Of a stretch of 64,000 nt of DNA, positions 31,968-50,998 are shown piece after piece. The notes beneath the pieces are model-generated. The model saw only the letters and a list, made by a program, of their open reading frames with translations, did no database searches and was not told the origin of the DNA. The DNA lies in assembly GCA_013343275.1 (NCBI GenBank), contig CP046106.1, forward strand, positions 800,001-864,000. Reading direction: 5' to 3'. How positions within the stretch are numbered: the first letter of the stretch is position 1; the number at the start of each line of letters is the position of its first letter. Origin of the DNA: Candidatus Nanohaloarchaea archaeon. GTDB taxonomy: Archaea; Nanohalarchaeota; Nanosalinia; Nanosalinales; Nanosalinaceae. The position numbers and the translations under genes are program-made.

Positions 31968-32019
31968 TGTATTATTACCTCGCAATAGTAAAATTAGAGA
32001 GAAAGCTTTATATTTTCAC

Positions 32020-32665: not shown

Positions 32666-33694
32666 TTAAGTATCTTTTGTTACCTGGAAGTCAATACATA
32701 CTCTGGTGGAGCTTGGACCTCTCTCGCCACACTCCACTACATCAATGATCTCGTAGTCAAGGCTCCTTCTAGATGTCTCCGCTTCGATCTCTTCTTCCAG
32801 TTCTTCCTGATTTCCTTCCTCACGGAAACGGTAATAGTGTATAACGCCGTTATTGGAGGTGTGGTCAACTGCGAGGCCCAGGAACTGGTCAGCTGACTCT
32901 GGCAGAGGCATGATTATCCGGTCGAACTCTCCAAGCTCGGGTACTACTTCTTTCACATCTCCCTCGATACCTTCCACTTTGTCGGCTTTATTTAACTCTA
33001 TATTCTTCTTCAGATACTCTGCACCTGCTGGGTTTTTCTCCACTGCTATGACTTTCTCTGCTTTCTCCGAGCAGAGTATGGCGAAAGGGCCTACTCCGGC
33101 GAACATGACAAGAACTTTCTCTCCTTCCTCTACCTGGTCGGCTACTCTCTTTCTCTCTGTTCCGAATCTTTCCGAGAAGTAGACTTCTGTAGGATCGACC
33201 TTGAATCTATAACCAAACTCCTTATGGATGGTCTCTGTCTCGGTGCCGTAGAGCTTCTCGTAATCGCCTACACGGAACTCTCCGGAAAGGCCTTCTTTTT
33301 TCAGTAGTATTGCCTTCACGTTCTGGTGTTGCAGAATCCCTTCTACTGCTTCCTCTCTGTCGACACTGGCCAGATCGTTGATAACTGCTATATCACCGAT
33401 CACTTCATAGGAAGGGGTTTCGTAATCTGGCTCGTCTCCGCTTTCCTCGTGCAGAATGGATACATCGTTATCAACAGAACTTTCAATCTCTTCAAGGCCT
33501 TCGTCTACAAAAACTTTTTCTCCGCTCTCTACAGAGGCCTTGACTTCTTCTGTTGAGTATTTGTCGGAGGAGAAGGCCTTCAGTACTATTTTCTGTCCGT
33601 TGGATGCTGTCAGCCTGTTGCCTTCCTTCTTGACTTTGAAGCCCTGTCTCTCGAAAAGTTCTCTGACCTTGGCTTCGAGTTTTTCCTGGTTCAT
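32666..33694 (-). CDS. Trm5/TYW2 (Met-10+) family tRNA methyltransferase
   Basis: YEVIGDIA, E.G..F.VD...VYFS.R...ER.R, MFAGVGPFAI, IMPLP. Confidence 0.9.
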   Translation of the reverse strand: MNQEKLEAKVRELFERQGFKVKKEGNRLTASNGQKIVLKAFSSDKYSTEEVKASVESGEKVFVDEGLEEIESSVDNDVSILHEESGDEPDYETPSYEVIGDIAVINDLASVDREEAVEGILQHQNVKAILLKKEGLSGEFRVGDYEKLYGTETETIHKEFGYRFKVDPTEVYFSERFGTERKRVADQVEEGEKVLVMFAGVGPFAILCSEKAEKVIAVEKNPAGAEYLKKNIELNKADKVEGIEGDVKEVVPELGEFDRIIMPLPESADQFLGLAVDHTSNNGVIHYYRFREEGNQEELEEEIEAETSRRSLDYEIIDVVECGERGPSSTRVCIDFQVTKDT

Positions 33695-33733
33695 CCTGCT
33701 GATAAAAAACTTTCAGTCCACTATTTTAACCAT

Positions 33734-34444
33734 ATGCTCTACCTGATCGGACTAGGACTTGACGACGGAGAAATAACGCAGAAAGGGATCGAGGCCCTGA
33801 AGAATGTAGATAAGGCCTACGCAGAGTTCTACACAAATACGGAGACTGTGGATCTGGAAGCACTGGAGGAACAGACAGGTACCGATATCGAGAAGCTTTC
33901 ACGTGAACAGGTAGAGCAGGAAGACATGATAACTGAATCAGCCCATGAAGAAGACACAGCCTTTCTGGTCTCAGGAAACGCTCTTACAGCAACGACACAT
34001 TACGAGATAAAGCATAGAGCGGAGAAAGAAGGCCTTGACGTAGAAGTTATACATGCGCCTTCAATCTTCACATCTATCTCGGAGACAGGACTTAACGTCT
34101 ACAATTTCGGCCGTACAGTAACGCTACCGCAGGATTTTGCACCGGAATCGATAGTTGAGCATATCGAAAAAAATGATTCAATCGGCCTACACACGCTTGT
34201 ACTTCTGGATATAAACTACGATGCTGCGGACGCCGCAGAAAAACTGATCGATCTTGATGAGGATCTAGAGGATAGAGAGGCCATGGTTCTCGAACGAGCC
34301 AATAACGAAGACCAGAATATTTCTCTTGCATCCCTCGGAGAACTATCCGAACATGATTTCGGAAGGCCTCCTCACTGTATAATTCTGGTAGGGGAGACCT
34401 CGCATATGGAAGAAGAATTTATAGAGGAATACAGTTTAGAATGA
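33734..34444 (+). CDS. dph5: Diphthine synthase
   Basis: MLYLIGLGL, EFYT, ATTH, GL..Y.FGRTVTLP, GLHTLVLLDI, FG.PPH. Confidence 0.94.
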   Translation: MLYLIGLGLDDGEITQKGIEALKNVDKAYAEFYTNTETVDLEALEEQTGTDIEKLSREQVEQEDMITESAHEEDTAFLVSGNALTATTHYEIKHRAEKEGLDVEVIHAPSIFTSISETGLNVYNFGRTVTLPQDFAPESIVEHIEKNDSIGLHTLVLLDINYDAADAAEKLIDLDEDLEDREAMVLERANNEDQNISLASLGELSEHDFGRPPHCIILVGETSHMEEEFIEEYSLE

Positions 34445-35269
34445 GGCCTCGAAGTACTGTGTTTCCCCGCCAGCAGACTGCTCCATAGTTATACTGCCTG
34501 ACGGTTCAAAACCTGATCCTGAGAAACTGAAGCTCTGAGTAACTGTTTCAGTACCCTGTTCGGCCTCGTAATCGAAGCTTGCGTCAGGATTCCAGCTATC
34601 GCTCATATCTACGCTTCCATCAGGCCCTGAATTATCTGGTTCATCGTATCCTGAATCTTCAGGCTCTGTGTAGTCCTCCTCTTCGGTTTCATCTGTATTT
34701 TCTTCTGTTCCATCTTCATTGAGTAGGTTTTCGTCTTCTGAGGTTCCGAAGAACTCGCTCTGCCAGCCCTGAGATTGATCCTGTTGCTGGCTCTGTCCAT
34801 AGTTATTATTGGTATTCTGGCCCTGGTTCTGATAGGAGGTATTCCAGAAACTGTTGTTCCAGCCTGTACCCCATCCAAAACCTTGTTGCTGCCCCGTAGG
34901 GCCTTGCTGCTGGTACATCCCCCAGCCTGACTGAGTCTGCCACGCTCCAGTATTCCAGGCTGGCTGGCCCCAGGAATTATTCTGTTCGTAGTTATTTTCG
35001 AGTATGTCTTCCAGGCGGCCGTTCTGTCTTTCCTGTCTTGACTGCATATCTTCTGCGAAAGCACCTACTCTTCTGTAATCTGTCTCCATCTGTTCAAGAA
35101 CTTCGTATAGCAGCTCTCTAGGCGCCTCTATTTCACTTTCTAGGTCGTCTATCAGTCCTTCCTCTCTGTCTATAGAGTCTCCTAACTCTCCCAGACTGTC
35201 AAACATATCATTGTTCGCTCTGCTAGCGCGTCGTGCCTGGTCCGAAAGATCGGAAGGATCTACACTCAT
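34436..35269 (-). CDS. Hypothetical protein: helical N-terminus, Q/N/G/W-rich middle, acidic tail
   Basis: 277-aa ORF; paralogous to the C-terminal half of 35315-36064. Confidence 0.7.
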   Translation of the reverse strand: MSVDPSDLSDQARRASRANNDMFDSLGELGDSIDREEGLIDDLESEIEAPRELLYEVLEQMETDYRRVGAFAEDMQSRQERQNGRLEDILENNYEQNNSWGQPAWNTGAWQTQSGWGMYQQQGPTGQQQGFGWGTGWNNSFWNTSYQNQGQNTNNNYGQSQQQDQSQGWQSEFFGTSEDENLLNEDGTEENTDETEEEDYTEPEDSGYDEPDNSGPDGSVDMSDSWNPDASFDYEAEQGTETVTQSFSFSGSGFEPSGSITMEQSAGGETQYFEASF

Positions 35270-35314
35270 GTTGTTACCTTATAGTAAAAAGAAATAAATA
35301 TGTGGAGGGTTATG

Positions 35315-36064
35315 TTATAGGTCGAGGTCGTATTCGTCTTCGAAGTCCTGACCTCTGCGCTCCATTGTTCCTAGTTCTCTTCTGACCTGGTCGTAATCTC
35401 CTTCATCTCTGAATTCTCTTGCGTCTTCAACTAGGTCTGTGAGACTGTCGTAATGTTCGTCGACAGTTGGCTGAAGCACCTGGTCTACGAATGCTGAAAC
35501 ACGATCGTAGTTGTCTTCTTGGACTTCTAGGGATTCGCTGATTACTTCGTTCTCAAGGTAACGGATTACGTCCTTTGTATCCTCAACGGTTACCTCAACT
35601 TCGTCTTCTCCATCTCCTAGTCGGTCTTCAAGATAGTTCTGGAAATCCTCTAGGTTGTCGAACATGTCGAACTCACTACCTCTTGCATCTCTGGTCTGTC
35701 GTCCAAGATCGTCAGGGTCGTTTGGTTCTCTTGCCATAATATTGTCACCTCCGTTATCTGGGTTTGGTTCAGGTTTTGAATCTGAAAGATCAGAGTTCTG
35801 GCCTTCGCTCGAAGGCTCAGAGTATGTTTCTGGATCGAGAAGCTCTCTTGCTTCATCTGAATGAGGTACTACTCTGTACTTCTCTCCACCATCTTCTCTC
35901 GTTACTCTCTCTACATCTACGTCGTCTCTCTGCCGATACTCGTTGAAATCGAACTCGTCACCGAGATCGGAGAGATTCACTGTTTCTATATCTTCTTCCA
36001 GGAGCTTGTCGACAGTCAACTTTACGCCGTCAAGCGGACCTGGAAATGGGTCAAATGCAGCCAT
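35315..36064 (-). CDS. Hypothetical acidic protein (possible second start at 35737)
   Basis: 249-aa ORF; internal GGAGGTGA SD before MAREPND. Confidence 0.7.
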   Translation of the reverse strand: MAAFDPFPGPLDGVKLTVDKLLEEDIETVNLSDLGDEFDFNEYRQRDDVDVERVTREDGGEKYRVVPHSDEARELLDPETYSEPSSEGQNSDLSDSKPEPNPDNGGDNIMAREPNDPDDLGRQTRDARGSEFDMFDNLEDFQNYLEDRLGDGEDEVEVTVEDTKDVIRYLENEVISESLEVQEDNYDRVSAFVDQVLQPTVDEHYDSLTDLVEDAREFRDEGDYDQVRRELGTMERRGQDFEDEYDLDL

Positions 36065-36136: not shown

Positions 36137-36376
36137 ATGGCCGAAATGGACGAAACCCAGGAGAAGCTCAGACAGGAAACCGAGAAATGGCTGGAGAAGC
36201 TGGAAGACAGAGTCGAGGAAAGAGATTCTTCAGTCGAGCAGATGGAAAATGTGGAGGCCTACAGGGATGATACACGACACTTCCTGGAGGAAGATGACTA
36301 CATCAGGGCCTGGGAATCTGTTATCTATGCCTGGGGTATTCTGGAAACACTGGAACGTCTCGGAAAATTTGATTAA
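36137..36376 (+). CDS. DUF357-like protein
   Basis: AY.DD..HFLE..D...A.....YAWG.L pattern. Confidence 0.8.
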   Translation: MAEMDETQEKLRQETEKWLEKLEDRVEERDSSVEQMENVEAYRDDTRHFLEEDDYIRAWESVIYAWGILETLERLGKFD

Positions 36377-36408: not shown

Positions 36409-36723
36409 ATGAACATCAAAGACCCGTGGAAATACATCGCCTTCCCGGCCTCAGCAATATCATCTTTCTTCGCAGTAGATATACTGCTCGACGACTTCAC
36501 AAAGATCACGGGTCTAAGCCAGCTCAACGGCCAGATGGCGCTTCTTGCAGCTACAGGCCTCCTGATAGGTTTCCTTGTTGACGAAATGGTGCCGGCATAC
36601 ATCGAGAAAGTGAGAGAAGGATCCAGTTCCTCCGGTGGTGGAGGCGGCGACTTTGGCGGCGGTGATGGCGGTGACACTGACTTCGGCGGAGACGGCGGCG
36701 GTGGTGACGATTTCGACTTCTAG
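36409..36723 (+). CDS. Small membrane protein with Gly/Asp tail
   Basis: Two hydrophobic segments; GGDFGGG..DFDF tail. Confidence 0.72.
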   Translation: MNIKDPWKYIAFPASAISSFFAVDILLDDFTKITGLSQLNGQMALLAATGLLIGFLVDEMVPAYIEKVREGSSSSGGGGGDFGGGDGGDTDFGGDGGGGDDFDF

Positions 36724-37123
36724 AAAAATTCTATCACTGGTTTTTCTACTCGCTTTCTGCACCGGTGCTGTAGCCGGACAGGCCTACAATCTTCAGGACT
36801 ACCAGGGCGCCGACTACTTTTCAGCCCCGGAATATGATTCTCAGAGAGAGCTTGTTCTCAAGCTTATCTTTCCGTTCGTTCTCCTCTACGCAATGATGCA
36901 GTTCACACTGTACAACCTGATGAAGTTCACCATAAACTCGAACGACGACATGAAGGACTCGGAGATAGGGAGGTACTCGACACTACTGGCCGCTGCCATC
37001 CCTGCAATGCTGATAGTCACACCTATGTGGGAGAAGATAAACCTGGCCGTAGAAGCAATGGGGCCTGTACTGCTGGTAGCATTCGCATGCCTATTCATCT
37101 ACGTCATCTACAGAATGACGTAA
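36704..37123 (+). CDS. Membrane protein (signal peptide + 3 TM), LPF-like motif
   Basis: LIFPFVLLY; start codon approximate (GTG). Confidence 0.65.
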   Translation: MTISTSRKILSLVFLLAFCTGAVAGQAYNLQDYQGADYFSAPEYDSQRELVLKLIFPFVLLYAMMQFTLYNLMKFTINSNDDMKDSEIGRYSTLLAAAIPAMLIVTPMWEKINLAVEAMGPVLLVAFACLFIYVIYRMT

Positions 37124-37166
37124 AACAGGCCTTAATGTATTAAAGAAGCTCAACTCAAATAACCCT

Positions 37167-39566
37167 ATGCGAAAAACCTATGCGGCAGCATTTCTGCTTG
37201 TCCTGATCGCAGCAATATCCGCGCCCGTCGCCGCACAGGGAATAACAGGGCCAACACAGTCATTCTACAACGCAGACCCGATAGGGTTCGTAGACTCGCT
37301 TACAGTCACCGATATCAACAACGGCCAGGACTTCCTTGTATTCGTAATACTACCGCTTATAGGAGTATACGGCCTGATGTGGTTCCTGTTCTCCAAAGTA
37401 CTGCAGGTAGCAGAAAACAACTTTGCCGACAACTCCAGCCCTACGGACGATGATCTATCAGAAATGGGGCAGAAAGCAGCAGTACTGATGGCCGCAGCAG
37501 TCGCCGTAGTAACAGTCATGCGGTTCGGCAACTTCTCACCTATAATGACACTCATACTATTCCTCCTCGCACTATACATGCTATACAAAAACGGCCTCGG
37601 CTTCATCGGAGCAGGAGGCGGCGGAGGACAAGGCCCACCGGGACCACAAGGTCCACAAGGAGATCAAGGACCGCAAGGCCCTCCTGGAGATTCACCTGAC
37701 CTGCCTGATGATCTAGTAACGGAAGATGATATACCGGACGATATTGGCGGTGGTGATGGCGGTGACGGAGGTGATGGTGGTTCTCCGGGCGGAGGCGGCA
37801 GCCCATATCAGAACATGGATCTGGATCTCTCTAACCTCGTGGATATCGATAATGATTCTGCGCAGGAGATGGCTGCTATGATGCGTCAGGCTCAGCAGCA
37901 GATGCAGCAACAGCAGCAGATGCAGATGACCCCGGGTGTGATGCAGATGATGGCTTTGTTCCAGGGCCGTATGGCTCCAGGTAATGGCGGTGTAGTTATT
38001 CAGCCTCCTAACGGGCCTAATGTAACTGTTCAGCAGCAGCAGATTAATCAGCTGATGCAGATGATGATGCAGGTTATGTCGGAGGGTGATGAGGACTTTG
38101 ATATGAATGTAGCGATGCAGATGATGCAGGTTGTCGTCAAGAATGGTGGTGACTTGGATGGAGATCTTATTCAGGTTCTGGAGCAGTACTTCCAGAAGGT
38201 TGAGAATAATCCAAAGATTGTACAGATCAACAACATGGAGATAGAGAAGGTTGTTAACCAGCAGTACTACGATATCAGTCAGGTGATGGTTCAGCAGTTC
38301 CAGCAGTTCTTCAGCCAGAAAAACGTTGACATCGATGTTCTAGCCTACCACCAGTTCATCAACTTGCTGGAGTTAAACGTTACCGCAAACAGCGGAGATA
38401 CAGTAATTATACATGCTGATGAAGGCGACGTGGAGATCGATGCCTCGGTCATAGTCCAGTTCATTTCAGTCGTAGAAAACTATCCCTCATCCCAGATAGG
38501 AGTCCTTATAGAGAAACTTGTCAATGTGTTTGCCGACATTGACGGCCCGCTAACACAGGAGATCCTGGTCAACATCACGAATATAATGATAAATATAGAG
38601 GAGGGCGGAGATCCGAGTGAGGTAGGGCCTGACGGTGCAGAAATAAAGATTGAGGAGCTTGAGCTAGTGACTGTTGACGGCCATCAACCGTTCCCAAGAG
38701 TAAAGAAGAATGGAGGCTATGTCCATGTGGTTCCTGCTGGAGCATCTACCGATCAGATAGGTATACATGCAATGGTCAGCTGCAACCGGAACGATGGCCT
38801 ACAGCAGATAACGTTCAACTTTGATGATAACCAGAGAGATCTAGGCCTTAACTCCAGCAGTTTCGGCCACGACGAAAGCGATGTAGTTCCTCTAAGTGAT
38901 ATAGCCGGAAGCCACCAGTTCCAGGAAGGCCAGATGCATAACTTCGGCATCAACGTAGTAGGCCAGATGGGCAACAACGAGAACACTGTCGCACAGCTAG
39001 AGGTATGGGCACCAGTAGATACACCGGAAGAAACTCCTGAAATCCCGGCTCTTGAGCCAGGCCCTGATGCGCCGCCTCTGCCTGAAGGAGAGGGTGTTTC
39101 TAAGCTGCCTGAGGATATAGAAAAAATAATAGATGATCTTGAAGGAGAGATAGATATTGAGAAGGATGTTGTGCAGGAGAAAAAGGACGCAGAGAACAAG
39201 CTAGCTGATGCATTGAGAGAGCTACTTGATAATCAGGATATTCTACATGCCCTAGTTTACTTCAGACAGGTTGATTTCGATGCTCCTCACGCCGACGTCC
39301 ATCAGCAGGTTGAGAAAATAATCTCTAATCTGGATGGTATAGATGAGGCCTCTCAGCTTCATTCCGAAATGAGGAATATTCAGCAGGTTTTCGGGAAAGT
39401 TGAGAATGCTTTAGATGAGCTACAAGATGCTTACGATAAGATGTCGGGCAGTGCAGGAGTACAGGCGCAGGATCAGGCAGATCTGGAAGAGATTTCAAAG
39501 TTAGTAGATAAACTGTCGGAAGGAAGAGAAGTACGTGAATATCTAAGTAAGCATTACAACGTGTAG
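37167..39566 (+). CDS. Membrane protein with collagen-like, Gln/Met-rich and coiled-coil regions
   Basis: Signal peptide, 3 TM, seven Gly-X-Y triplets, QQM runs, helical C-terminus. Confidence 0.8.
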   Translation: MRKTYAAAFLLVLIAAISAPVAAQGITGPTQSFYNADPIGFVDSLTVTDINNGQDFLVFVILPLIGVYGLMWFLFSKVLQVAENNFADNSSPTDDDLSEMGQKAAVLMAAAVAVVTVMRFGNFSPIMTLILFLLALYMLYKNGLGFIGAGGGGGQGPPGPQGPQGDQGPQGPPGDSPDLPDDLVTEDDIPDDIGGGDGGDGGDGGSPGGGGSPYQNMDLDLSNLVDIDNDSAQEMAAMMRQAQQQMQQQQQMQMTPGVMQMMALFQGRMAPGNGGVVIQPPNGPNVTVQQQQINQLMQMMMQVMSEGDEDFDMNVAMQMMQVVVKNGGDLDGDLIQVLEQYFQKVENNPKIVQINNMEIEKVVNQQYYDISQVMVQQFQQFFSQKNVDIDVLAYHQFINLLELNVTANSGDTVIIHADEGDVEIDASVIVQFISVVENYPSSQIGVLIEKLVNVFADIDGPLTQEILVNITNIMINIEEGGDPSEVGPDGAEIKIEELELVTVDGHQPFPRVKKNGGYVHVVPAGASTDQIGIHAMVSCNRNDGLQQITFNFDDNQRDLGLNSSSFGHDESDVVPLSDIAGSHQFQEGQMHNFGINVVGQMGNNENTVAQLEVWAPVDTPEETPEIPALEPGPDAPPLPEGEGVSKLPEDIEKIIDDLEGEIDIEKDVVQEKKDAENKLADALRELLDNQDILHALVYFRQVDFDAPHADVHQQVEKIISNLDGIDEASQLHSEMRNIQQVFGKVENALDELQDAYDKMSGSAGVQAQDQADLEEISKLVDKLSEGREVREYLSKHYNV

Positions 39567-39620
39567 AAGCAGCCGGTTCAGGAATAACTAATAAAAACCT
39601 CTTTCTGTAGTAATTTACAC

Positions 39621-40142
39621 ATGGCAACAAACGTTGATGTCAATATCGACAACTTCATGAGCGATCTAAAGGATATTCTAAATGATCTAGAAAAAGAGGA
39701 GCAAATTGAGCAGCAGATAATTGAAGAGCAGAAAGATGCAGAAGAGAAGCTTGCTGAAGCTCTAAGAGATCTAACTGGGAGAGATGAGAAAGGTCAGTGG
39801 TCAGAAGGAGCCCAAGGTGCACTTCAGGCATTAATCCAGTTTAGAGATGTGAACTTTGATGCGCCTCATGCAGAAGTCCACCAGCAGGTAGAGCAGATCA
39901 TCAAGAACTCTAAAGGCATTAATGATGCTGCAAAGCTCCAGAGCCACTTGCAGGACTTCCATCATGGAATTGGAAATATTGAGAGAGCTCTAGAAGAGCT
40001 GCAGGATGTCTATCAGAGGACTTCTGAAGATGCTGAACATCAGAAAGCTGATGTTAAGGAGCTCAGAGAAATCCAGCAGGTTGTTGGCAAGCTTCAGCAG
40101 GGGGCACAGAGATACTCCAAGTGGGCACAGGGAGAACGATAG
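39621..40142 (+). CDS. Coiled-coil protein, paralog of the C-terminus of 37167-39566
   Basis: FDAPHA(E/D)VHQQVE shared between the two. Confidence 0.8.
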   Translation: MATNVDVNIDNFMSDLKDILNDLEKEEQIEQQIIEEQKDAEEKLAEALRDLTGRDEKGQWSEGAQGALQALIQFRDVNFDAPHAEVHQQVEQIIKNSKGINDAAKLQSHLQDFHHGIGNIERALEELQDVYQRTSEDAEHQKADVKELREIQQVVGKLQQGAQRYSKWAQGER

Positions 40143-40193
40143 TTTCTCTCCTACCCCCTTAACTTCTTAATATTCTAAACTTAGTTGCTTATT

Positions 40194-41651
40194 ATGCCAA
40201 GCAAGAAAAGTATCTTGTTTTCGACAGTATTTCTTTCCCTAATACCTTTATCAGCTGCTCAATCGGGCAACCAGTTCTTCACACTTTTCAGTGGTTATGT
40301 CGGTATGCCTGTAACTAATGGCCAGCAGTTCATAATGTATGTTCTTGCGCCCTTCCTGTTTGTATTTGCTATCTCCCGATTTATAGCAAAAGGCGCCTTA
40401 ATGAATGCAATGGAAAGCTCCGGGCTTGGCGGAGAAGTAGGTAAGCGAGCACCTACATTGATCGGCGTTGCGACAGCAGGCATAATGATGATACTGTTTG
40501 GCGGCGTACTGCTATGGCTGATTGTAATATTTGCAATTCTCGGAGCAGGATGGTTCCTACTCGGAAGTACAAAATATGCTGCAGATAGCACAGGTGTGAC
40601 TGGAGGCCTCAAGAAAGGAGCATCCGCGGTCAGCGATAGAATGGGCTCAGGGTCTTCTAGCAGCGGAGATTCTAGTGGTGTAACAGCTGAGAAGGTAAGT
40701 GATATGCTAGATGATAGAATAGATCAGCTGAAGAGTGAGTTATCGTCTATTGATGATGAGGAGCAGGATGAGAAACAGAAGGAAGATCAGACAGAGCAGG
40801 AGGAAGAAGAAGGTCAGAATCCTGATCAGGTAGAGGACGAAATAGAATCTGAAGAGGCCGAGTTGATGGATATAGTTAAGAAACTGGAGACGGTTGAAGA
40901 ACAGTTGAACGGTCTCGAGAGCGATATAGACTCCATAGAAGAACTGGAGCTTGATGAAGTCCAGAGGGATATGAGTAAGCTAAATGATGTGGAGAGTGTT
41001 GAGCAACAGGTAAATGAAGATCTACAGGACATGATTCAGAGAGCAAAGGCTGGTAGAGTAGATGAAGAAGTTCTGGAAGAGTTCGCATCTAATATGGCTG
41101 AGTGGGAGGATTATCTGCGAGAGCTGAGGCATGATATGGCGCATGAACATAATATCCATCAATCTGTCGATAAAATTCTAGAGGACCTGCGCGAGATGAG
41201 AGATGTTCTTGACTTTGCTGAAAGCGATATCCACAAGGCGGAAACGCTCGTCAATGAACTTGAAGATGAGGAGCAGAAGGCTGAAGCTCTGTCTCAGAAA
41301 TATGGCGCTCGTGAAATCTTTGAAGAAATTGAGCAGGATGAGTCTGAGACTTCAGACATAGAGTCGGAAATAAGAAATAAAGTAGTAGAAAGATACCAGG
41401 AACTTCAGCAAGGGATTGAAGATGAGATAGAAAGAGCTGAGGAATTGAAGGAGTATGATGAGCAGGAGTTCGATGAGATTCTGGATATAGTTCAGGGATT
41501 GGATCAAGAAGAAGGTGCTCTAAGCAATTTAAGGAATAGGTTTAGTAATGGCCCTCACGAAGAGTATGAACAGGAGCTGGAAGATATTATTGAGCATATA
41601 GAGGAGATAGAAAGTATGGCCCGGCAGTTAAGCTCGGAGCATCAGGCCTAG
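40194..41651 (+). CDS. Membrane-anchored long coiled-coil protein
   Basis: Signal peptide + 3 TM (VLAPFLFVF), then about 320 aa of acidic heptads. Confidence 0.8.
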   Translation: MPSKKSILFSTVFLSLIPLSAAQSGNQFFTLFSGYVGMPVTNGQQFIMYVLAPFLFVFAISRFIAKGALMNAMESSGLGGEVGKRAPTLIGVATAGIMMILFGGVLLWLIVIFAILGAGWFLLGSTKYAADSTGVTGGLKKGASAVSDRMGSGSSSSGDSSGVTAEKVSDMLDDRIDQLKSELSSIDDEEQDEKQKEDQTEQEEEEGQNPDQVEDEIESEEAELMDIVKKLETVEEQLNGLESDIDSIEELELDEVQRDMSKLNDVESVEQQVNEDLQDMIQRAKAGRVDEEVLEEFASNMAEWEDYLRELRHDMAHEHNIHQSVDKILEDLREMRDVLDFAESDIHKAETLVNELEDEEQKAEALSQKYGAREIFEEIEQDESETSDIESEIRNKVVERYQELQQGIEDEIERAEELKEYDEQEFDEILDIVQGLDQEEGALSNLRNRFSNGPHEEYEQELEDIIEHIEEIESMARQLSSEHQA

Positions 41652-41710
41652 AGTAGGTTTAGATATTTAAGTAAGGCTTAATAACACAATGCTAAGAGGT
41701 TTCAAAATAC

Positions 41711-41851
41711 ATGGCTCTGACAGTGGAAGCAATAATGAATAACCTGATGGCCTATCCAGAGGTAGCAGCGGTAGGCTTTGTAGCAGGTTTCCTTGCAAGA
41801 TGGTACATGGGTAAAAGAAATAACGGCGGCGCTGGAGGCGGCTGGGGTTAA
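41711..41851 (+). CDS. 46-aa single-TM microprotein (not in the ORF track)
   Basis: MALTVEAIMNNLMAYPEVAAVGFVAGFLARWYMGKRNNGGAGGGWG; GAGGT upstream; fills the operon gap. Confidence 0.65.
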   Translation: MALTVEAIMNNLMAYPEVAAVGFVAGFLARWYMGKRNNGGAGGGWG

Positions 41852-41855
41852 CACC

Positions 41856-42116
41856 ATGAAACGAGATACTAAATTCCACGAGTTTGTATACGAGATAGAA
41901 AACATTCTAGATGAACTCCTGATTGCGTTCCTATCGTTTGGAGCCATAGTAGTGTCGGTATGGACTCTTCAGAGAACTCAGGGTCTTACCATGAGTTCTT
42001 TCGGCGATATTATACAGCCGTGGATCGTAATGCTAGGCCTTATGATCATCGGGAGAGAGCTATGGATGATGAACCGCAACCTTGAAGAGTACTTGAGAAG
42101 AGAAGAAGGTGAATGA
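41856..42116 (+). CDS. Small 2-TM membrane protein
   Basis: MKRDTKFHEF.. start; ATGA overlap with the next gene. Confidence 0.7.
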   Translation: MKRDTKFHEFVYEIENILDELLIAFLSFGAIVVSVWTLQRTQGLTMSSFGDIIQPWIVMLGLMIIGRELWMMNRNLEEYLRREEGE

Positions 42117-42685
42117 GCAAAGTGGCTACAGGATTCGCCGCTCTAATCACTACTCTTGAAGGAGTAGATTTCTTCACACTCCTACTTCCTTTCCTAGTAA
42201 CCTATGTAGTACTTCTGTTCGGAGTACGTCAGATAGGCCATCTGGAAGATTCAAATGTTCCTCCGGTGGTAGCACTGGCAGGAGCATTCTTCCTGGCCTT
42301 CTTCCTCGCCAACAATCCAGGTTATCAGTCATTCTTCACACAGTACTGGGCCCGGATAGCAATAGGAATGATGGGAGTACTAGGCCTAGGAGCAATCCTC
42401 GGCCTTGCAGGATGGGGCAATGTATTGAGCGATTCCAAGCCGCTGGGAATGCTTGTGCTGATAGCAGGCTTCGCAGTATTCGCAAGAACCGGCGGTTTAG
42501 AGGCTATTATCCCTCTACCAGATACTACGGTCCAGCAGATGGTAAACACTGTGCTTAGCTCTCCACTTATCTGGCTTGTCCCGCTCGGATTTGTGATGTA
42601 CTGGACCTCACCATCATCAGGAGACGATGATGACGGAAGTTCACTGGAGGATAAACTGGACTTCGTCCTAGGCAGCGGTGATTGA
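42113..42685 (+). CDS. Polytopic membrane protein, LPF motif
   Basis: FFTLLLPFLVTYVVL; about 5 TM. Confidence 0.78.
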   Translation: MSKVATGFAALITTLEGVDFFTLLLPFLVTYVVLLFGVRQIGHLEDSNVPPVVALAGAFFLAFFLANNPGYQSFFTQYWARIAIGMMGVLGLGAILGLAGWGNVLSDSKPLGMLVLIAGFAVFARTGGLEAIIPLPDTTVQQMVNTVLSSPLIWLVPLGFVMYWTSPSSGDDDDGSSLEDKLDFVLGSGD

Positions 42686-42687
42686 TC

Positions 42688-43185
42688 ATGGGAGCAATTG
42701 AGCAGGTAATATTGACCATGGAAGAAATGGGCTTCAACGTATTCCTTCCATGGCTCCTAATATTCTCAGTCACATACGGCCTGCTTAACAAGTACGAACC
42801 TATCAGCGAAGAAACCCAGGTTAACGGCGTCATATCCCTGGCCTTCGCTTTCCTGTCCGTTATCGGTGTCACTAGTTTCGCCCCCGCAGGGATGTGGACA
42901 CATTTTGCCTCGGCTATAGCCTTCGGTATCTTCGGAATGCTTTCACTAATGATTCTTTTCGCAGTAGCAGGATATGATCTGGATGATATGGGAGAGGCCT
43001 GGTCGCTTCCATGGATATTTGCCGGAGTAATAGGAGTAGTTGCATTTGTGAGCGTGATAGTTGGATATGGAGGAGGAACTGCCCGTCTCATCGGCCAGGG
43101 CAACCTGTTTGATCAGGTAGTGATGCCTATACTCTCGCTGGTATTCGTGATAATAATAGTTCTGTTCACAACTCAAGACTTCTGA
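42688..43185 (+). CDS. Polytopic membrane protein, LPF-like motif
   Basis: GFNVFLPWLLIFSVTYGLL; about 5 TM. Confidence 0.78.
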   Translation: MGAIEQVILTMEEMGFNVFLPWLLIFSVTYGLLNKYEPISEETQVNGVISLAFAFLSVIGVTSFAPAGMWTHFASAIAFGIFGMLSLMILFAVAGYDLDDMGEAWSLPWIFAGVIGVVAFVSVIVGYGGGTARLIGQGNLFDQVVMPILSLVFVIIIVLFTTQDF

Positions 43186-43246
43186 TAAGCTAAAGTGAGA
43201 ACAGTTAACTCGAGAAAAATTTAGATAGAAAAAATTTGTGTATAGC

Positions 43247-44173
43247 CTACCAGTCCTCGATATCCATGTCGTCCATTTCCTGCTGTGAGACGTTTGTATC
43301 TGTCTCTATTCCTTTCTCCTGCTTGATTTCTTGAACTAGACTGGTCAGATCCCTTACATTGTCAACTAGGGAAGGTAGTACCTGCTGGAAAGCCTTCTCC
43401 AAGCCTCCTATCCTTGATTCATAGGAGTCAATATGGTCCTCCATCTCGTCTACTTTCTGCACGAACTGCTGCTGATCTTCATCGTCGCGGACTTCGAGCT
43501 CTTCAACTCTGTCCTCAAGTTCGTCTACTTTATCGGCAAGAATATCTATCTCATCAAAGACATCGTCGAAACGCTGCTCAACCCTCTGGAAGTTCTCGGA
43601 TACAATAGTTTCAATAAGCTCTTCAACCTCAGGGTCAACCGTGCCCTGTGAAGGATTAGCCATTTGCTGGCCTCCTCCCTGCTGAGGCTGTTGAACCTGC
43701 TGATTTTGATTATTGTTATTCTGGTTCTGATTGAATCCCTGATTTTGTTGAAAGTCTTGCTGCTGTTGCTGTCCATTGTTCTGATTCATCTGTTGATCTC
43801 CCTCTGAGTTACCATCGAAACCTTCATCCATAGGACTCACTGCCTCCTCCCCGTTATTATCTTGGTATGGGGTCATGGGCTCAGGACCTCCTTGATTACC
43901 GTTATTGCCAGTAGCTGAGCTCTTCACTGCGCTGTTGATCGCTCTCTCAATTTCCGTCTGTGAAAACTGGCCCTGTAACTCTTCTTTAATTTCCTCCTCG
44001 GAGTAACCCTGGTTGAACATATCTTCAACACGCCGCTCAACACCGTTACCTCCGAAGGAAGAGCCTTGTTGATTATTGCTGGAGCCGCCAAAATCTCCGA
44101 ATCCGCCGCTGCCTGAGTTAGAATCTCCTTGATCGCCATCGTCCTTTAATCTATCAAACAACTTGAATTCCAT
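43247..44173 (-). CDS. Q/N-rich coiled-coil protein
   Basis: QGYSEEEI motif, Q/N linker, EELIETIV then heptads. Confidence 0.78.
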   Translation of the reverse strand: MEFKLFDRLKDDGDQGDSNSGSGGFGDFGGSSNNQQGSSFGGNGVERRVEDMFNQGYSEEEIKEELQGQFSQTEIERAINSAVKSSATGNNGNQGGPEPMTPYQDNNGEEAVSPMDEGFDGNSEGDQQMNQNNGQQQQQDFQQNQGFNQNQNNNNQNQQVQQPQQGGGQQMANPSQGTVDPEVEELIETIVSENFQRVEQRFDDVFDEIDILADKVDELEDRVEELEVRDDEDQQQFVQKVDEMEDHIDSYESRIGGLEKAFQQVLPSLVDNVRDLTSLVQEIKQEKGIETDTNVSQQEMDDMDIEDW

Positions 44174-44217
44174 ACGGCTCGCCTACAAGTATAATACGGT
44201 TTCTGGTTTATAAACAA

Positions 44218-44649
44218 TTAATCCTTTTGTCTAAGCTTTTTCTCGACTATCCGCTCTACCTCTTCCTTACTCAGACCTCCATTACTGTTATTCTCATCTA
44301 TCAGCTTCTTTACCTCTTTCTTAGTCATGAAAGAAGAGTTGATGGGGTTCATCAAGTCCATGTAGTTCTCGATCTCCTCTATCTCCTGAGAAGTAACAAA
44401 CTTCCTCTTCTCCCGGTTAATCTCCTTAATGTCAACCTCCAGATTCGCGATTCTATCTCTTATCTCGCTCATATCGTCATTAATATCCTGTATATCATCG
44501 CTGAGAGACTTAGTCTTCTTCAAGAGGCTGTCATCGAGAGTGTTGACTCTCGCATTGATGTTCCTTACCTTTTCCTCCAGATCCCGGATCCTCCGGTTGA
44601 AGTCGTTTACCCTATCTACTAACTGATTTACAAGGTCTTGCTGAGGCAT
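44218..44649 (-). CDS. Coiled-coil protein
   Basis: Continuous heptads; YMDLMNP..F.TK.EV; divergent from the ATPase. Confidence 0.78.
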   Translation of the reverse strand: MPQQDLVNQLVDRVNDFNRRIRDLEEKVRNINARVNTLDDSLLKKTKSLSDDIQDINDDMSEIRDRIANLEVDIKEINREKRKFVTSQEIEEIENYMDLMNPINSSFMTKKEVKKLIDENNSNGGLSKEEVERIVEKKLRQKD

Positions 44650-44689
44650 TCACTTTTATTTTAGAAACGCGCCAATAATAATGCTGGGT

Positions 44690-46942
44690 ATGAGTGTAAC
44701 AGATAAAGACGTTTTCGAGTACGACTACGATGAAGAATCAGGAACGGTAGAGGTAAACACTCTAGGATCAGTCTATGGGGCAAGCCTCGAGGACTACCCG
44801 CAGGTTATGTCTCGAGTCATAAATATCCTGCAGGAAGTTCCTGATGCATCATCCGTAGTTCTATCCGAATCAAGAGACTATGAATACGATGAACAGCAGG
44901 TACAGTACCTCAAAGAGATAGCACAGGTAATACAGGACCTATCATCACAGGGCTACCTGTCTCAGGATGTCAAAACAGATAAATGCGACAATATTTACAG
45001 TCAGCATCTTCCCGACGTTCAGGAAAGCGTCTTCGACAAGATGCGTAAAGATCCGATAGGTGCATATGTACAGCTCACCAGAAAAAAGCGCCACCTTAAC
45101 CAGGATAGAGAGAACGCATATCCTGAAGAACAGCGCTGTCTCAAATACTTTATACAGGATGTACTCAACCCTGTAATCGACAGGATCGAGGAATGCCAGT
45201 TAATCCAGCAGGCCCAGCAATACCTTACAGGCCACCACGTAGGAGACAGAGAGATATACAGGGAGTTCTTCCATCCACTGGTCAGGCCTAACTTCATGCT
45301 TACAAAGTACATGAGCCTTCCTCCTGAGAGAGGAGAGGAGGTAGACCGCTATGAGGTAAGAGACGGCATCGAAGTATCGATTTACAGGGTACCAGACCAG
45401 ACAAGGCCTGTATATCACGTTAACCCGCCGGAGTTCAATCTTTCTGAGCAGAAATACACTCTGCTTGACGCAGCAAGGAGATACATGGCTTCCCACCAGC
45501 CGGAGGAGGGAGAGTTTGCAAGGCCTGAAAGAATGAATGAAGTGTTTGAAAACATCGGTAAAGATATGCTCAGGGATATTTCCAACCAGATGGGTATGGA
45601 CCTCTCACTGGAGGAGATAGAAGAGCTCGGATCCATACTCAACAGATACACCTCAGGCCTCGGCGTACTCGAGCTGCTTCTCGCAGACCCAAAGATCCAG
45701 GACGTCTACATTAACTCTCCTATCGGCGATTCTCCGATGTACATCTCTCATCAGGACTACGAGGAGTGCGAAACCAATCTCATTCCGACGAAGGACGAGG
45801 CTGAGTCGTGGGCCACCCGCTTCAGGATCCGTTCAGGAAGACCTCTTGACGAGGCAAACCCGGTACTGGATACAGAGGCCGAGGTTCCTGGAGGCCGGGC
45901 TCGTGTAGCTGTTATACAGGAAAATCTCTCACCGGAAGGCCTGGCGTTCGCATTCCGTAGACACCGTTCACAGGCCTGGACTCTCCCACTTTTCGTTGAC
46001 AACAACATGATAAACTCGCTGGGAGCGGCCCTGATATCCTTCCTTGTCGATGGTAATCGTTCAGTTCTATTTGCAGGCACCCGTGGTGCAGGTAAATCCT
46101 CCCTGCTAGGAGCCTCTATGCTTGAAATTATGAAAAGCCACAGGATAGTAACGGTAGAGGACACGCTTGAGTTGCCGATTCCGCAGATGAAGGACTTAGG
46201 GTACAATGTGGAGCGTATGAAATCCAGATCTGCGATTACTCAGGTCGAGAACGAAATGGCAGCTGATGAGGCCATCCGTACATCGCTCAGGCTTGGTGAC
46301 TCCGCTCTAGTTGTAGGAGAGGTTCGTTCCGACGAGGCAAAGGCCCTGTATGAGGCTATGCGTGTCGGAGCTGTTGCTAACTTCGTTGGAGGTACTATCC
46401 ACGGTGAGAGCGCTTACTCTGTTTTCGACCGTGTTGTAAACGATCTTGGTGTCCCTCGAACGTCTTTCAAGGCTACAGATATTATTGTCAGCGTGAATAA
46501 GATCCGTAGTCCTGATGGTATGGAGACTTACCGCCGTGTAACTGGTATTACGGAGGTTAGGAAGGACTGGCAGGATGATCCTCGGGAGGAGAATGCTTTC
46601 GTTGACCTTATGCGTTACGACAGCAATAAGGATGAGCTTGTGCCTACAGATGAGCTTATGAACGGCGAATCCCTTATCCTGAACCGTATTGCAGAGAACA
46701 TCAAGGAATGGAAGAACGACTGGGAGGCCGTCTGGGATAATATCAAGCTCAGGCAGAAGATAAAGGAGAGGCTGATCGAGGCCGATAAAGAGTCCGATAA
46801 AGATCTTCTCGAGGCCGATTTCGTGGTCAAGGCCAATCAGAGATACCATATTCTGTCGCAGAGAGTGAGGGAGGAGTACGGTTCTCTGGATAACGACAGG
46901 ATCTACGCAAGATGGAATGAATGGCTGGAACAGCAGGTGTAA
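44690..46942 (+). CDS. Type II/IV secretion ATPase (VirB11/CpaF/FlaI-like) with long N-terminal extension
   Basis: Walker A GTRGAGKS, Asp box TVEDTLEL, Walker B LVVGEVR, His box GTIHG. Confidence 0.94.
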   Translation: MSVTDKDVFEYDYDEESGTVEVNTLGSVYGASLEDYPQVMSRVINILQEVPDASSVVLSESRDYEYDEQQVQYLKEIAQVIQDLSSQGYLSQDVKTDKCDNIYSQHLPDVQESVFDKMRKDPIGAYVQLTRKKRHLNQDRENAYPEEQRCLKYFIQDVLNPVIDRIEECQLIQQAQQYLTGHHVGDREIYREFFHPLVRPNFMLTKYMSLPPERGEEVDRYEVRDGIEVSIYRVPDQTRPVYHVNPPEFNLSEQKYTLLDAARRYMASHQPEEGEFARPERMNEVFENIGKDMLRDISNQMGMDLSLEEIEELGSILNRYTSGLGVLELLLADPKIQDVYINSPIGDSPMYISHQDYEECETNLIPTKDEAESWATRFRIRSGRPLDEANPVLDTEAEVPGGRARVAVIQENLSPEGLAFAFRRHRSQAWTLPLFVDNNMINSLGAALISFLVDGNRSVLFAGTRGAGKSSLLGASMLEIMKSHRIVTVEDTLELPIPQMKDLGYNVERMKSRSAITQVENEMAADEAIRTSLRLGDSALVVGEVRSDEAKALYEAMRVGAVANFVGGTIHGESAYSVFDRVVNDLGVPRTSFKATDIIVSVNKIRSPDGMETYRRVTGITEVRKDWQDDPREENAFVDLMRYDSNKDELVPTDELMNGESLILNRIAENIKEWKNDWEAVWDNIKLRQKIKERLIEADKESDKDLLEADFVVKANQRYHILSQRVREEYGSLDNDRIYARWNEWLEQQV

Positions 46943-46945: not shown

Positions 46946-49120
46946 TTGGATAAACAGGAGAAACAGGACAAGATAAACGATATACTGGAAGACCTGGACA
47001 GAGATGTCAGTATGCCTCCCTACGATAACCAGGATGGAGGCCAGGGTTACTCCCGTTCCTACAAGGAGTACAAGGAGGAAGAGGAGAGCTCAAGGGAGCG
47101 CAACAGCTACGAGAAGCTCTGCTACGAGATGGCCAACGTCTTCAATATGAAGGCTGGGGAGAAGACTCATGAGAAGCTTACACCTCCGATCAATCTTCTT
47201 GGATGGGATATAACTCCCGGAATGGTTATGTCGGCCACTGTCGGCGTCTTTGTTCTCTCATTTATGTCCTGGATGAGCCTGTTCCTGGTGAATACACTGC
47301 TCCTCGGCAATCTTATTCCTGTCTCGATCATGATGATAATTCTCTCAGCGCCGATAATGGCCTCGGTATACACCTACTACAAGCCGAAATATGCTGCGCA
47401 GTCAAAATTAATCGAGAGCAGCGGAGAAATGATACTGGCCATACTCTACATGGTAGTATACATGAGAAGCTCTCCAAACCTGGAGGGAGCAGTCAGGTTC
47501 GCAGCTCTCAACCTAGAAGGCCCTATTTCCGACGACCTGAAAGGAGTACTCTGGGACCTGGAGATCGGAAAGTACAACAAGATAGATGAGGCCCTCGAAA
47601 ACTATACTCGCAGATGGAAGGATTACAATGATGACTTCCTGGAGTCGCTGAATCTTCTTCGTTCTGCTATGAATCAGCCGGATCCTGATCGGCGGGAGTC
47701 TATGCTTCAGGACTCAATCGACAATATCCTGGATGGAACACAGGAGAAGATGAAACACTATGCACAGAATCTGGAGACTCCTGTCATGATCCTGAACGCA
47801 ATGGGCGCTATGCTACCGGTGCTCGGCATGATAATGCTCCCGCTTATCTCTGTATTCATGGGAGATGCCATCACACCTATGCACCTTTTCCTACTGTTCA
47901 ATGTTTTACTACCTACGTTTCTCTACTGGTTCATGAAAAGAGTGCTCAGCTCCAGACCGCCAACAGTCGCTACAAATCCTGTAGACGACTCTATACTCCC
48001 TGACAGAGGCAAATATACGTTAAATCTTCTGGGTAGAGACTTCAGAATACCTGTCTGGCCTGTAGGAGTAATACTTTTCTTCTTTTTCGGCCTATACGGC
48101 ATAGTCGGATACCTTTCCACAGCAAGCGCTGGCCAGGGCTTCTTCCTGCTCTACCCTGCCGCTACCAATATAGATCCTTCACTAGTGCCTTCTATATATC
48201 TACAACCTGATGGCTCTCTTGCACCTCTACCAATGCTTATGAGAAGCGTGTCGATAGTGTTCGGCCTTGGAGTAGGTATAGGCTCTGTAAAAGTACTTGG
48301 CAATATCGAACGGAAAAAAGCAGAGGAGAGACTATCAAAAATAGAGGAACAGTTCCCTAACGCACTCTTCGAACTAGGAAACAAGATATCAGGAGGAACG
48401 CCTGTAGAGATCGCACTGGAAGACGCCGCAGAAGCAACATCTGAACTCGAAATATCCAATCTATTCGGAAAGGCCTCGGAAAACGTCAAAGACATGGGAA
48501 TGACATTCGAACAGGCCGTAATGGATGATCAGTATGGCGCGCTGAGGCAGTTCCCTAGCCAGATGATCAGAACAGTAATGCAGGCCATCATACAGTCCTC
48601 AAAGAAAGGGACCAATATGGCCTCTACAGCAATGCTTACAATATCAAAATACCTTAAGAACATACACAAGACACAGGAGCAACTTAACGATCTGATGGAG
48701 GATACTACAACAACTATTCAGATGCTGGCCTACCTGCTCGCGCCGGTAGTATCGGGAGTGGCGGTGGGAATGTCACAGACCATCATAACGGCCATGTCCA
48801 CTCTTTCAAAATCGGTGAAACAGTCGCAGGTTGGCAATCAGCCAGGAACAGCTTCGGGCCTTGGAGGAGTTATATCCGGTTTTGAATCTGCGATACCGCC
48901 AGAACTTCTTCAGTTCGTGGTAGGACTCTACCTGATTCAGTTGCTTTTCATACTGGGAAGCTTCTTCACCAAGATCAAGAAGGGAGAGGACCCGACCTAC
49001 AAGAACCTGTTTATAGGCAAAATAATGATCTCAGGCATGTTCTTCTACGCCATGACCTTGATAATAGTAGGAATGCTATTCGGAGGCATGGTAGGATCAG
49101 TAACACAGGTGGCAGCATAG
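46946..49120 (+). CDS. Type IV pilus membrane platform protein (TadB/C, FlaJ-like)
   Basis: Polytopic with two T2SSF-like cytoplasmic domains (NLEGAV.FAA; FP.ALF.LGN....G.P.E.A); follows the ATPase. Confidence 0.85.
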   Translation: MDKQEKQDKINDILEDLDRDVSMPPYDNQDGGQGYSRSYKEYKEEEESSRERNSYEKLCYEMANVFNMKAGEKTHEKLTPPINLLGWDITPGMVMSATVGVFVLSFMSWMSLFLVNTLLLGNLIPVSIMMIILSAPIMASVYTYYKPKYAAQSKLIESSGEMILAILYMVVYMRSSPNLEGAVRFAALNLEGPISDDLKGVLWDLEIGKYNKIDEALENYTRRWKDYNDDFLESLNLLRSAMNQPDPDRRESMLQDSIDNILDGTQEKMKHYAQNLETPVMILNAMGAMLPVLGMIMLPLISVFMGDAITPMHLFLLFNVLLPTFLYWFMKRVLSSRPPTVATNPVDDSILPDRGKYTLNLLGRDFRIPVWPVGVILFFFFGLYGIVGYLSTASAGQGFFLLYPAATNIDPSLVPSIYLQPDGSLAPLPMLMRSVSIVFGLGVGIGSVKVLGNIERKKAEERLSKIEEQFPNALFELGNKISGGTPVEIALEDAAEATSELEISNLFGKASENVKDMGMTFEQAVMDDQYGALRQFPSQMIRTVMQAIIQSSKKGTNMASTAMLTISKYLKNIHKTQEQLNDLMEDTTTTIQMLAYLLAPVVSGVAVGMSQTIITAMSTLSKSVKQSQVGNQPGTASGLGGVISGFESAIPPELLQFVVGLYLIQLLFILGSFFTKIKKGEDPTYKNLFIGKIMISGMFFYAMTLIIVGMLFGGMVGSVTQVAA

Positions 49121-49283: not shown

Positions 49284-49502
49284 ATGAAGCTAACATCCAA
49301 AATCCTCACAAACAGAAAAGCAATGGGCTGGAGCATGAGAGTAATAATGGCTCTATTCCTGGCAATAGCATTTGGAGCACTGATAATGCCATACCTTCTA
49401 CCGGCAATATTCGGCGCAGAATCAACAACCAGCTGTCAGGCGCCATACATGCAGGCGATAGCCAGCGTAGTCTCCGACGCAACAGGTAGCTCGCCATGCT
49501 GA
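49284..49502 (+). CDS. Pilin-like protein
   Basis: RKA|MGW followed by a hydrophobic helix; Cys pair. Confidence 0.75.
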   Translation: MKLTSKILTNRKAMGWSMRVIMALFLAIAFGALIMPYLLPAIFGAESTTSCQAPYMQAIASVVSDATGSSPC

Positions 49503-50995: not shown

Positions 50996-50998
50996 AAA

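Follow-up and report, generated by a model that had tools for sequence, protein, structure and literature searches.

Introduction

The closest described counterparts of the locus examined here are type IV pilus-like gene clusters of DPANN archaea. Our locus occupies positions 36409–44649 of a stretch of 64,000 nucleotides, hereafter the window, from a Candidatus Nanohaloarchaea archaeon (contig CP046106.1, positions 800,001–864,000), and consists of a run of membrane-protein genes and two coiled-coil genes that abut the gene of a long secretion ATPase. In the accessible text of Hamm et al. (2024; PMC11291902), two conserved type IV pilus-like loci with coiled-coil proteins (CCPs, named NAR1_03220 and NAR1_01690) were reported across cluster-2 DPANN; both loci were expressed according to proteomics and were proposed as host-interaction candidates, and a contact zone of 15–20 nm was described in a nanohaloarchaeon. 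Operons that combine ATPase and TadC genes with up to 22 hypothetical genes were likened to archaella operons in the available part of Reva et al. (2023; PMC10266531), where expression in a cultivated nanohaloarchaeon reached 847 (TadC), 1230 (ATPase) and 265–2266 (the next nine tags) reads per kilobase per million (RPKM), values that come with no genome-wide baseline. In the corresponding part of Makarova, Koonin and Albers (2016; PMC4858521), a nanoarchaeal ATPase is placed in subclade 4F of type IV pili (T4P), for which a coiled-coil subunit was named and an N-terminal cysteine-rich domain is often present. Lastly, cryo-electron tomography (cryo-ET) revealed one cone per cell, with a portal of 20–22 nm, a gate or other barrier, and a tube of 7 nm (Gaisin 2024, PMC11104419; Johnson 2024, PMC11420986); the accessible text of these papers does not name the attachment organelle's component proteins, and the proteins building DPANN–host junctions are stated to be unknown in the passages available from PMC11291902 and PMC11104419.

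The locus in the window shares with those of Hamm et al. a CpaF-type ATPase, TadC and adjacent coiled-coil genes, found across Nanohaloarchaeota, Nanoarchaeota and their kin, whereas the five-helix membrane family, the small membrane genes and the variable anchored proteins described below go unmentioned in the accessible part of that paper, whose large supplements may mention membrane genes. Locus 1 of that study (GroEL, GatE, pilins) was matched by another ATPase/TadC locus of our genome (476–488 kb), which carries pilins, a coiled-coil gene, GroEL and GatE; therefore, the cluster in the window is probably Locus 2, an assignment for which a third ATPase/TadC locus (615–619 kb; genome positions 615772–619361), with an acidic 401-amino-acid (aa) gene upstream, competes. 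With the locus of Reva et al. it has in common the flanking phosphoglycerate mutase, Alba, Trm5 and Dph5 genes, and that locus was transcribed in co-culture; this match rests on gene order, not on sequence, and the hypothetical genes were left unanalysed in the available text. In contrast to subclade 4F as presented in the accessible part of PMC4858521, where no array of membrane paralogs is described and cognate pilins were not identified in nanoarchaea, the present locus has both such an array and prepilin-like genes downstream. Thus, a pilus and coiled-coil locus has already been published as a host-interaction candidate, and what the present locus adds is the membrane family, the accessory gene set and a lineage-specific variable array. 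No description of the five-helix family was found in the literature by title or abstract opening, a search that left subscription journals and some supplements outside its scope.

Results

A conserved core beside the longest ATPase gene

The genome forms a single contig of 915,886 bases and encodes an acidic proteome; in protein searches, close relatives carried the source label Nanohaloarchaea. Three ATPase/TadC loci are present, and the cluster studied here lies upstream of the longest ATPase (753 aa). It is built of three layers, namely a core (g7/g8, g9, g10, ATPase and TadC), small genes kept at the family level (g1, g2, gS and g6) and variable mosaics (g3, g4 and g5). We favour, with a probability of roughly 55%, a reading in which the products of the core genes serve, in the membrane and in the cytoplasm, as accessory subunits of a Tad-like (type IV) contact pilus of DPANN archaea. 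The core comprises the following features:

g7, 42113–42685, + strand: five-helix membrane protein, core paralog
g8, 42688–43185, + strand: five-helix membrane protein, core paralog adjoining g9, predicted N-out/C-in
g9, 43247–44173, − strand: soluble protein with an N-terminal MKFxLFGRL motif, a small three-helix domain, a low-complexity linker and a conserved C-terminal coiled coil
g10, 44218–44649, − strand: soluble coiled-coil protein, 31 bp head-to-head with the ATPase gene
Long secretion ATPase (CpaF/TadA/FlaI type), 44681–46942, + strand: PF00437, with an N-terminal extension of ~220 aa
TadC/FlaJ-type membrane platform, 46946–49120, + strand: PF00482, two T2SSF stretches

The g8 gene was found in 59 of 70 genomes of the phylum and in 27 of the 28 high-quality ones. 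In one of the 11 genomes where it was missed, the family was recovered by profile; of the remaining ten, eight also lack the ATPase, which fits the expectation of a missing contig. Gene order was followed in a Nanohaloarchaeota sample of 60 loci from 58 genomes, 53 loci of which extend at least 2.5 kb downstream. In these 53, g9 (49 loci), g10 (50) and, as the next element within 2.5 kb, the ATPase (47) lay downstream of the membrane genes. Linkage to the ATPase/TadC/pilin module holds in other genomes; linkage to the ATPase was the touchstone that a first-pass annotation of this DNA had set for its proposed attachment or secretion machine. The six loci without the ATPase comprised two solo extra copies, three with g9/g10 and no ATPase, and one with TadC directly behind.

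Conservation in a second phylum and beyond

The same gene order, with three membrane paralogs, was encountered in a locus labelled Nanoarchaeota. In this phylum, the second one examined, 119 of the 121 genomes sampled encode an orthologue of the long ATPase. The 60 loci sampled there were taken mostly in the order of their handles, several with the gene near the contig start being omitted, and 55 of them have at least 5 kb upstream. When these 55 were anchored on the ATPase, g10 was recovered in 44 (head-to-head, within 2.5 kb), g9 in 43 (within 4 kb upstream) and at least two five-helix genes upstream of the ATPase in 38, of which 34 were trios. The trio positions represent three distinct subfamilies: all 36 third-position members were closest to the g8 class, and 48 of 52 g7 proteins scored best against class b, the middle or first member of the trio. 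Three dispersed five-helix copies, g9 and a weak g10 match were found in G130, a genome of 0.49 Mb whose ATPase has no membrane genes beside it.

The wider range was sampled in 69 members of the phylum and 131 other archaea, using the family profile at E ≤ 1e-8. Matches were obtained in 59 and 25 of them, respectively, the 25 being genomes of 0.5–1.6 Mb. Of the 131 outside archaea, 48 encode the long ATPase; the 25 five-helix carriers all fall within these 48 and none within the other 83, a count in which kin are not independent. Twenty loci were taken from the 25 genomes; six were contigs already counted, which left 14 further loci. Membrane genes, g9, g10, ATPase and TadC stood together in eight of them, three had membrane genes and g9 (two also g10) with no ATPase, and three had membrane genes alone. 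We infer a restriction of the family to DPANN from the small genomes, the Atlas labels (Nanobdellota, Aenigmatarchaeota) and Hamm et al. (2024; PMC11291902, available text); the Atlas label 'Methanobacteriota' on some relatives may mirror the NCBI placement of Nanohaloarchaea.

A further 20 loci were drawn from genomes with the ATPase but lacking the family. Five of these carried a divergent g10 (5/5) and g9 (4/5) head-to-head with the ATPase, together with short membrane genes. In L143, L145, L149, L154 and L157, several genes of 60–120 aa with two or three helices take the place of the five-helix paralogs. The short membrane genes (90–105 aa) of the five distant loci matched the family with P of 53–67%, a score that was reached by 4 of 30 shuffles; judging by sequence, they are possibly a three-helix form that represents the ancestral unit of the family. 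As a separate observation, a divergent gene of 170–200 aa, with two to five membrane helices and exosortase-like by eye, frequently lies ahead of still more distant long ATPases (L144, L148, L151, L153, L155, L158, L160, L161), as do genes of very large surface proteins.

Kinship, topology and fold of the five-helix family

The g7 and g8 profiles matched each other with P = 99.7% (hhalign), and those of the N-domains of g2, g3 and g5 matched mutually with P > 99.9%, in alignments that have rows in common. Against a five-helix profile of non-halophiles, g2 gave P = 90% (E = 1.4e-6), g5 70% and g3 47% (hhalign), and all three scores lay above those of reversed profiles, of nine TadC slices and of every one of 25 local shuffles per protein (for g5 by a narrow margin). 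The first-pass annotation had quoted a first helix of L-P-F/W type in five proteins; all five helices are present, and since the scores exceed the controls, the shared helix reflects distant homology of g2, g3 and g5 with g7/g8 and not a mere look-alike. Hence, g2, g3 and g5 each appear to start with a signal peptide followed by helices 1–3 of the five-helix family. The g1 and g6 profiles, with P of ~1% against the five-helix profile, are unrelated.

The AlphaFold2 (AF2) model of g8, with a predicted local distance difference test (pLDDT) score of 83 and a predicted template-modelling (pTM) score of 0.62, displays an N-terminal helix and five membrane helices. Basic residues are concentrated in loops 1 and 3 and in the C-tail, and therefore an N-out/C-in topology is predicted. 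Conserved positions of the g8 family are one proline, glycines and hydrophobic residues, with polar residues at helix ends only. No conserved charged residue was found within the five helices of this family, so that a pore is not indicated; the ring or pore put forward at first pass gained no result in its favour.

At E ≤ 0.001, the g8 profile matched 1936 clusters (50% identity). Fold searches of PDB and BFVD with the g8 model yielded no significant match, an absence that does not prove a new fold; the best hits were a Foldseek E of 2.2 and a VIA Z of 7.3, confined to a hairpin of 61 residues. FliP, EmrE and MscS were discarded as fold relatives because their rows were non-significant. NuoJ/ND6 (complex I subunit J) was rejected as well: in spite of a profile E of 1.7e-6, the model compared with 8qby_J at a template-modelling (TM) score of 0.23 and a root-mean-square deviation (rmsd) of 12, and the profile match is read as one of hydrophobic pattern. 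With regard to transporter and channel families, no Pfam family matched more than 6 of 96 g7/g8 members at E ≤ 0.01 and no NCBIfam model was over its cut-off; a known transporter family, the other outcome that would have spoken against the first-pass proposal, was thus not found. The one five-helix family member searched against plasmids had no match. More generally, no Pfam or NCBIfam model (Pfam only for gS) reached its cut-off for g1–g10, and PDB sequence searches with the cluster proteins returned only coiled-coil or hydrophobic noise.

The coiled-coil genes g9 and g10

Both g9 and g10 are helical coiled-coil proteins encoded on the − strand, so that two coiled-coil genes do face the ATPase gene, as had been noted at first pass. 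The head-to-head arrangement of g10 and ATPase is kept across phyla, and g10 keeps its place by the ATPase even where the membrane genes have left or the ATPase gene is turned around, as in L080 and L102. These two loci, both of the second phylum, show an inversion of the ATPase gene by itself, between g10 and TadC. The window g9 scored 22.4 bits against FlaC (PF05377; cut-off, 27.8), alongside many other coiled-coil families. Among g9 homologues, PF05377 was the commonest Pfam match (9 of 19 at E ≤ 0.001; best, 1.5e-6), and the sequences suggest that this signal is probably that of a generic coiled coil.

ATPase, platform and prepilin-like genes

The ATPase matched PF00437 with 56.8 bits, over a cut-off of 24.9, and its Walker A, Asp box, Walker B and His box are all intact in sequence. 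Its nearest solved chains are archaeal GspE, CpaF and FlaI, and it scored 141 against the NCBIfam FlaI model (cut-off, 550). The first 220 residues contain three cysteines, with more in the L062 orthologue. The two PF00482 stretches of the platform were above cut-off. Downstream of TadC, the following run was found:

Prepilin-like gene run with an Alba gene in between, 49284–55839, + strand: open reading frames (ORFs), five with the class III signal-peptide pattern

That pattern, FlaFind-like and known from the literature, gave 23 matches genome-wide, some of them false. These prepilin-like genes are probable filament subunits of the same machine, as far as their sequences tell. No match to the prepilin peptidase families PF01478 or PF06847 was obtained in the genome, and one five-helix ORF with a GGAD motif (genome positions 205786–206757) is a motif candidate for this enzyme.

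In the ATPase orthologue L002:4722-8474, an insert of ~500 aa sits in the Asp box, beginning with Ser and ending with His-Asn before Thr; by its ends, it would be an intein. It was also seen in L010, L014, L034, L037, L040, L045 and several second-phylum loci, and the window ATPase is free of it. Nanohaloarchaeota ATPase ORFs exceeded 1100 aa in 9 of 46 cases, two of them probably owing to upstream ORF extension.

Family-level and variable upstream genes

Ahead of g7, the cluster contains the following genes:

g1, 36409–36723, + strand: two transmembrane helices, Gly/Asp tail ending in D-F-D-F, conserved at the family level
g2, 36704–37123, + strand: signal peptide and three membrane helices, apparently a stand-alone anchor domain and distant kin of g7/g8 helices 1–3; the start is inferred, probably GTG, the longest ORF beginning at 36635
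g3, 37167–39566, + strand: variable mosaic of a signal peptide, a three-helix anchor and several downstream regions
g4, 39621–40142, + strand: soluble copy of the g3 C-terminal domain, modelled as a four-helix bundle
g5, 40194–41651, + strand: signal peptide, three-helix anchor and long acidic helical C-terminal region (D+E, 24%)
gS, 41711–41851, + strand: 46-aa single-helix membrane peptide with a basic, Gly/Met-rich tail
g6, 41856–42116, + strand: 86-aa two-helix membrane protein with conserved motifs EN..DE and RELW

Once the 46-aa gS is included among the ORF calls, 36409–43185 holds nine + strand genes. Hydropathy placed membrane segments in seven (g1, g2, g3, g5, g6, g7 and g8) and none in g4, and the single hydrophobic helix of gS makes eight of nine, the count given by the first-pass annotation. 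Of the two long acidic coiled coils that it had also described, the one in g5 corresponds to a long acidic helical region, whereas g3 is a mosaic with no single long coiled coil.

The g1 and g2 genes were each present in 31 of 45 loci of the archaeon's own family (f1) and g6 in 41 of 45, and none of the three in the 15 loci of other families; gS lay directly ahead of g6 in 41 of 42 loci. Most misses of g1, g2 and g6 are cut contigs, and L043 and L044 are without them in full-length loci. The label 'lineage-specific' given at first pass accordingly fits the upstream genes but not the core, which is shared by two phyla or more and by other groups with small genomes.

The zone between DUF357 and gS holds a variable number of large proteins among relatives. 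The three-helix anchor was detected on 61 proteins across 37 loci, at one to four per locus, and the C-terminal parts of the anchored proteins fall into many clusters. In g3, the anchor is followed by a collagen-like segment (150–176), a Q/M-rich region, a beta-rich region and a C-terminal helical domain of ~160 aa of g4 type; counting the window, the last three occur in 6, 4 and 10 loci, some on a different anchor, and the g3/g4-type domain is also borne on a different hydrophobic N-terminus. The g4 protein matched the g3 C-terminal domain with a phmmer E of 2e-33, and this type of domain was found in 8 of 45 f1 loci. In the AF2 model (pLDDT 74, pTM 0.58) g4 is a four-helix bundle, for which a fold search returned generic four-helix bundles only (best Z, 9.9), with no pore-forming or ESCRT match standing out. 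The g5 C-domain was found in 10 loci, window included. Taken at sequence level, the zone seems to behave as a shuffling array rather than as fixed subunits; against the one fixed machine of eleven genes implied at first pass, close relatives differ in how many genes of the g3, g4 and g5 kind they carry and in the domains that these encode. To judge by the number of helices and by the basic residues, the C-terminal parts of g3 and g5 are probably cytoplasmic, and Ig-like-looking segments in an anchored protein of L016 are a point to weigh against this placement.

An extra soluble protein gene is inserted in 13 loci, with ATP-grasp-type matches in the three of three scanned, two of them over cut-off. 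This RimK-like/ATP-grasp gene lies between the anchored proteins and gS (e.g., L003:11459-12556, L024:11412-12458, L012:7687-8778), is absent from the window and is followed in two of the 13 loci by an asparagine-synthase-like gene; to go by these resemblances, the enzyme could modify the acidic proteins.

Flanking genes

Trm5-like and Dph5-like genes (assigned by resemblance and the table of Reva et al.) and a DUF357 gene (PF04010) flank the cluster at 32666–34444 and 36137–36376. These flanks recur in most family loci, and Dph5 also lies near the membrane genes in L130 and L132. Between Dph5 and DUF357, two very acidic soluble paralogs of 277 and 249 aa (34436–36064, − strand) have a short coiled coil in common (E, 3.5e-7) and were seen in the window, in L001, weakly in L035 and nowhere else. 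At the distal end of the pilin run, two hyperacidic coiled-coil genes (170 and 534 aa; 57321–59496, + strand) come after the gene of phosphoglycerate mutase. At 30615–32625 (− strand), two acidic genes have twin-arginine-like N-termini, the first of which missed the PF10518 cut-off of 22.7. To our knowledge, export by twin-arginine translocation (Tat) is not expected in most nanohaloarchaea.

Discussion

In other type IV filament motors, the accessory rings (ArlX, ArlC/D/E, PilMNOP) have membrane-anchored and cytoplasmic coiled-coil parts that brace the ATPase/platform pair. Their likeness to the core described here is an analogy only, and no sequence or fold match above cut-off links them to g1–g10. 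Starting from gene content and order, paralogy, sequence-based topology, intact motifs and co-occurrence, we infer all contacts and the attachment role of the favoured reading as follows. The g7 and g8 proteins, like the two to four paralogs elsewhere, would assemble, next to the TadC platform, into a hetero-oligomeric collar in the membrane, while g10 and g9 would form a cytoplasmic coiled-coil scaffold tying the motor to the collar, with the amphipathic N-terminal motif of g9 possibly touching the membrane. Collar and scaffold may anchor and localise a filament that grips the host. In the archaeon's own family, the collar would have gained the small subunits g1, g2, gS and g6; the related three-helix anchor of g3 and g5 (g4 being the presumed partner of g3) would hang different helical domains into the cytoplasm, and g3, g4 and g5 would be optional adaptors outside the core.

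Several observations weigh against this accessory-subunit reading. Firstly, in 17 of the 55 second-phylum loci no membrane genes stand beside the ATPase, although it speaks for the reading that the family is kept in all 17 of these genomes, two further along the locus and 15 elsewhere (13 as tandem trios). Secondly, membrane genes and g9/g10 relocate together without the ATPase (genomes G113 and G129; loci L053–L055, L127 and L142). Thirdly, 23 of the 48 ATPase-positive outside genomes have no five-helix match, also by a second profile, and 15 of the 20 loci from ATPase-positive, family-negative genomes lack g9 and g10. Outside the second phylum, loci hold between two and four copies, whose positions do not correspond one-to-one, so that a fixed stoichiometry is not general. 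Finally, the cluster has three transcription units and forms no single operon with the ATPase, two further ATPase/TadC loci exist in the genome, and a motif candidate is all that was found for the prepilin peptidase.

Some of these points would also be explained if the five-helix paralogs and g9/g10 formed a separate membrane complex (for membrane shaping, host lipid uptake or polar organisation) that is merely co-regulated with the motor, which we consider unlikely, though a serious contender. In several genomes its genes travel without the ATPase, membrane genes and ATPase belong to separate transcription units, and the Nanohaloarchaeota unit is also tied to the housekeeping genes Trm5, Dph5 and DUF357, so that a long-lived adjacency need not imply a shared function. 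Yet the family never occurred without the long ATPase among the 131 outside archaea, g10 remains beside the ATPase despite inversion (L080, L102) or departure of the membrane genes, and in five loci of the more distant group divergent g10 and g9 still flank the ATPase.

Rather doubtful, too, is that the five-helix paralogs and coiled coils constitute the portal or gate of the attachment organelle, as a conduit for the filament into the host or for metabolites or lipids. This would suit a family found almost throughout the genomes sampled from two host-dependent phyla, including the smallest genome, and confined to small genomes among the outside archaea, as well as the lack of a known fold for the g8 model and the cone, portal, gate and tube of unknown composition in the cryo-ET papers (accessible text). 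On the other hand, conserved charge is missing from the helices and polar positions fall at helix ends, some small-genome archaea have the ATPase and lack the family, and the accessible passages on the organelle draw no link to these genes. In addition, the cone lies outside the membrane, whereas the outer loops of g7/g8 are short (~8 and ~19 residues).

As a speculation to which we give little credence, the five-helix paralogs could be the hetero-oligomeric membrane gate of the DPANN organelle of attachment, with a new fold and braced by g9/g10, through which the neighbouring Tad-like motor pushes the thin filament that cryo-ET shows passing into the host cytoplasm, and into which the anchor, recruited for this in nanohaloarchaea, plugs a polymorphic set of cytoplasmic adaptor or cargo domains (g3, g4, g5) that would help to set host range. 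It is highly improbable that g9/g10 are diverged parts of an archaellum switch complex (ArlC/D/E-like) and the locus a motility system since, although FlaC tops the Pfam matches of g9 homologues and such operons were compared to archaella operons in the available text of Reva et al. (2023; PMC10266531), the window g9 and the ATPase stay below the FlaC and FlaI cut-offs and no archaellin or ArlH match was obtained among the locus proteins scanned.

With the contact pilus as the favoured reading, the locus offers a short list of candidates for DPANN–host junction proteins that is kept in most examined genomes of two phyla: a large membrane family without a Pfam model or fold match and two coiled-coil families, all tied to one motor. 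Even on a cautious reading, archaeal type IV pili gain a set of undescribed accessory subunits, and the variable anchored proteins provide a handle on lineage-specific adaptation.

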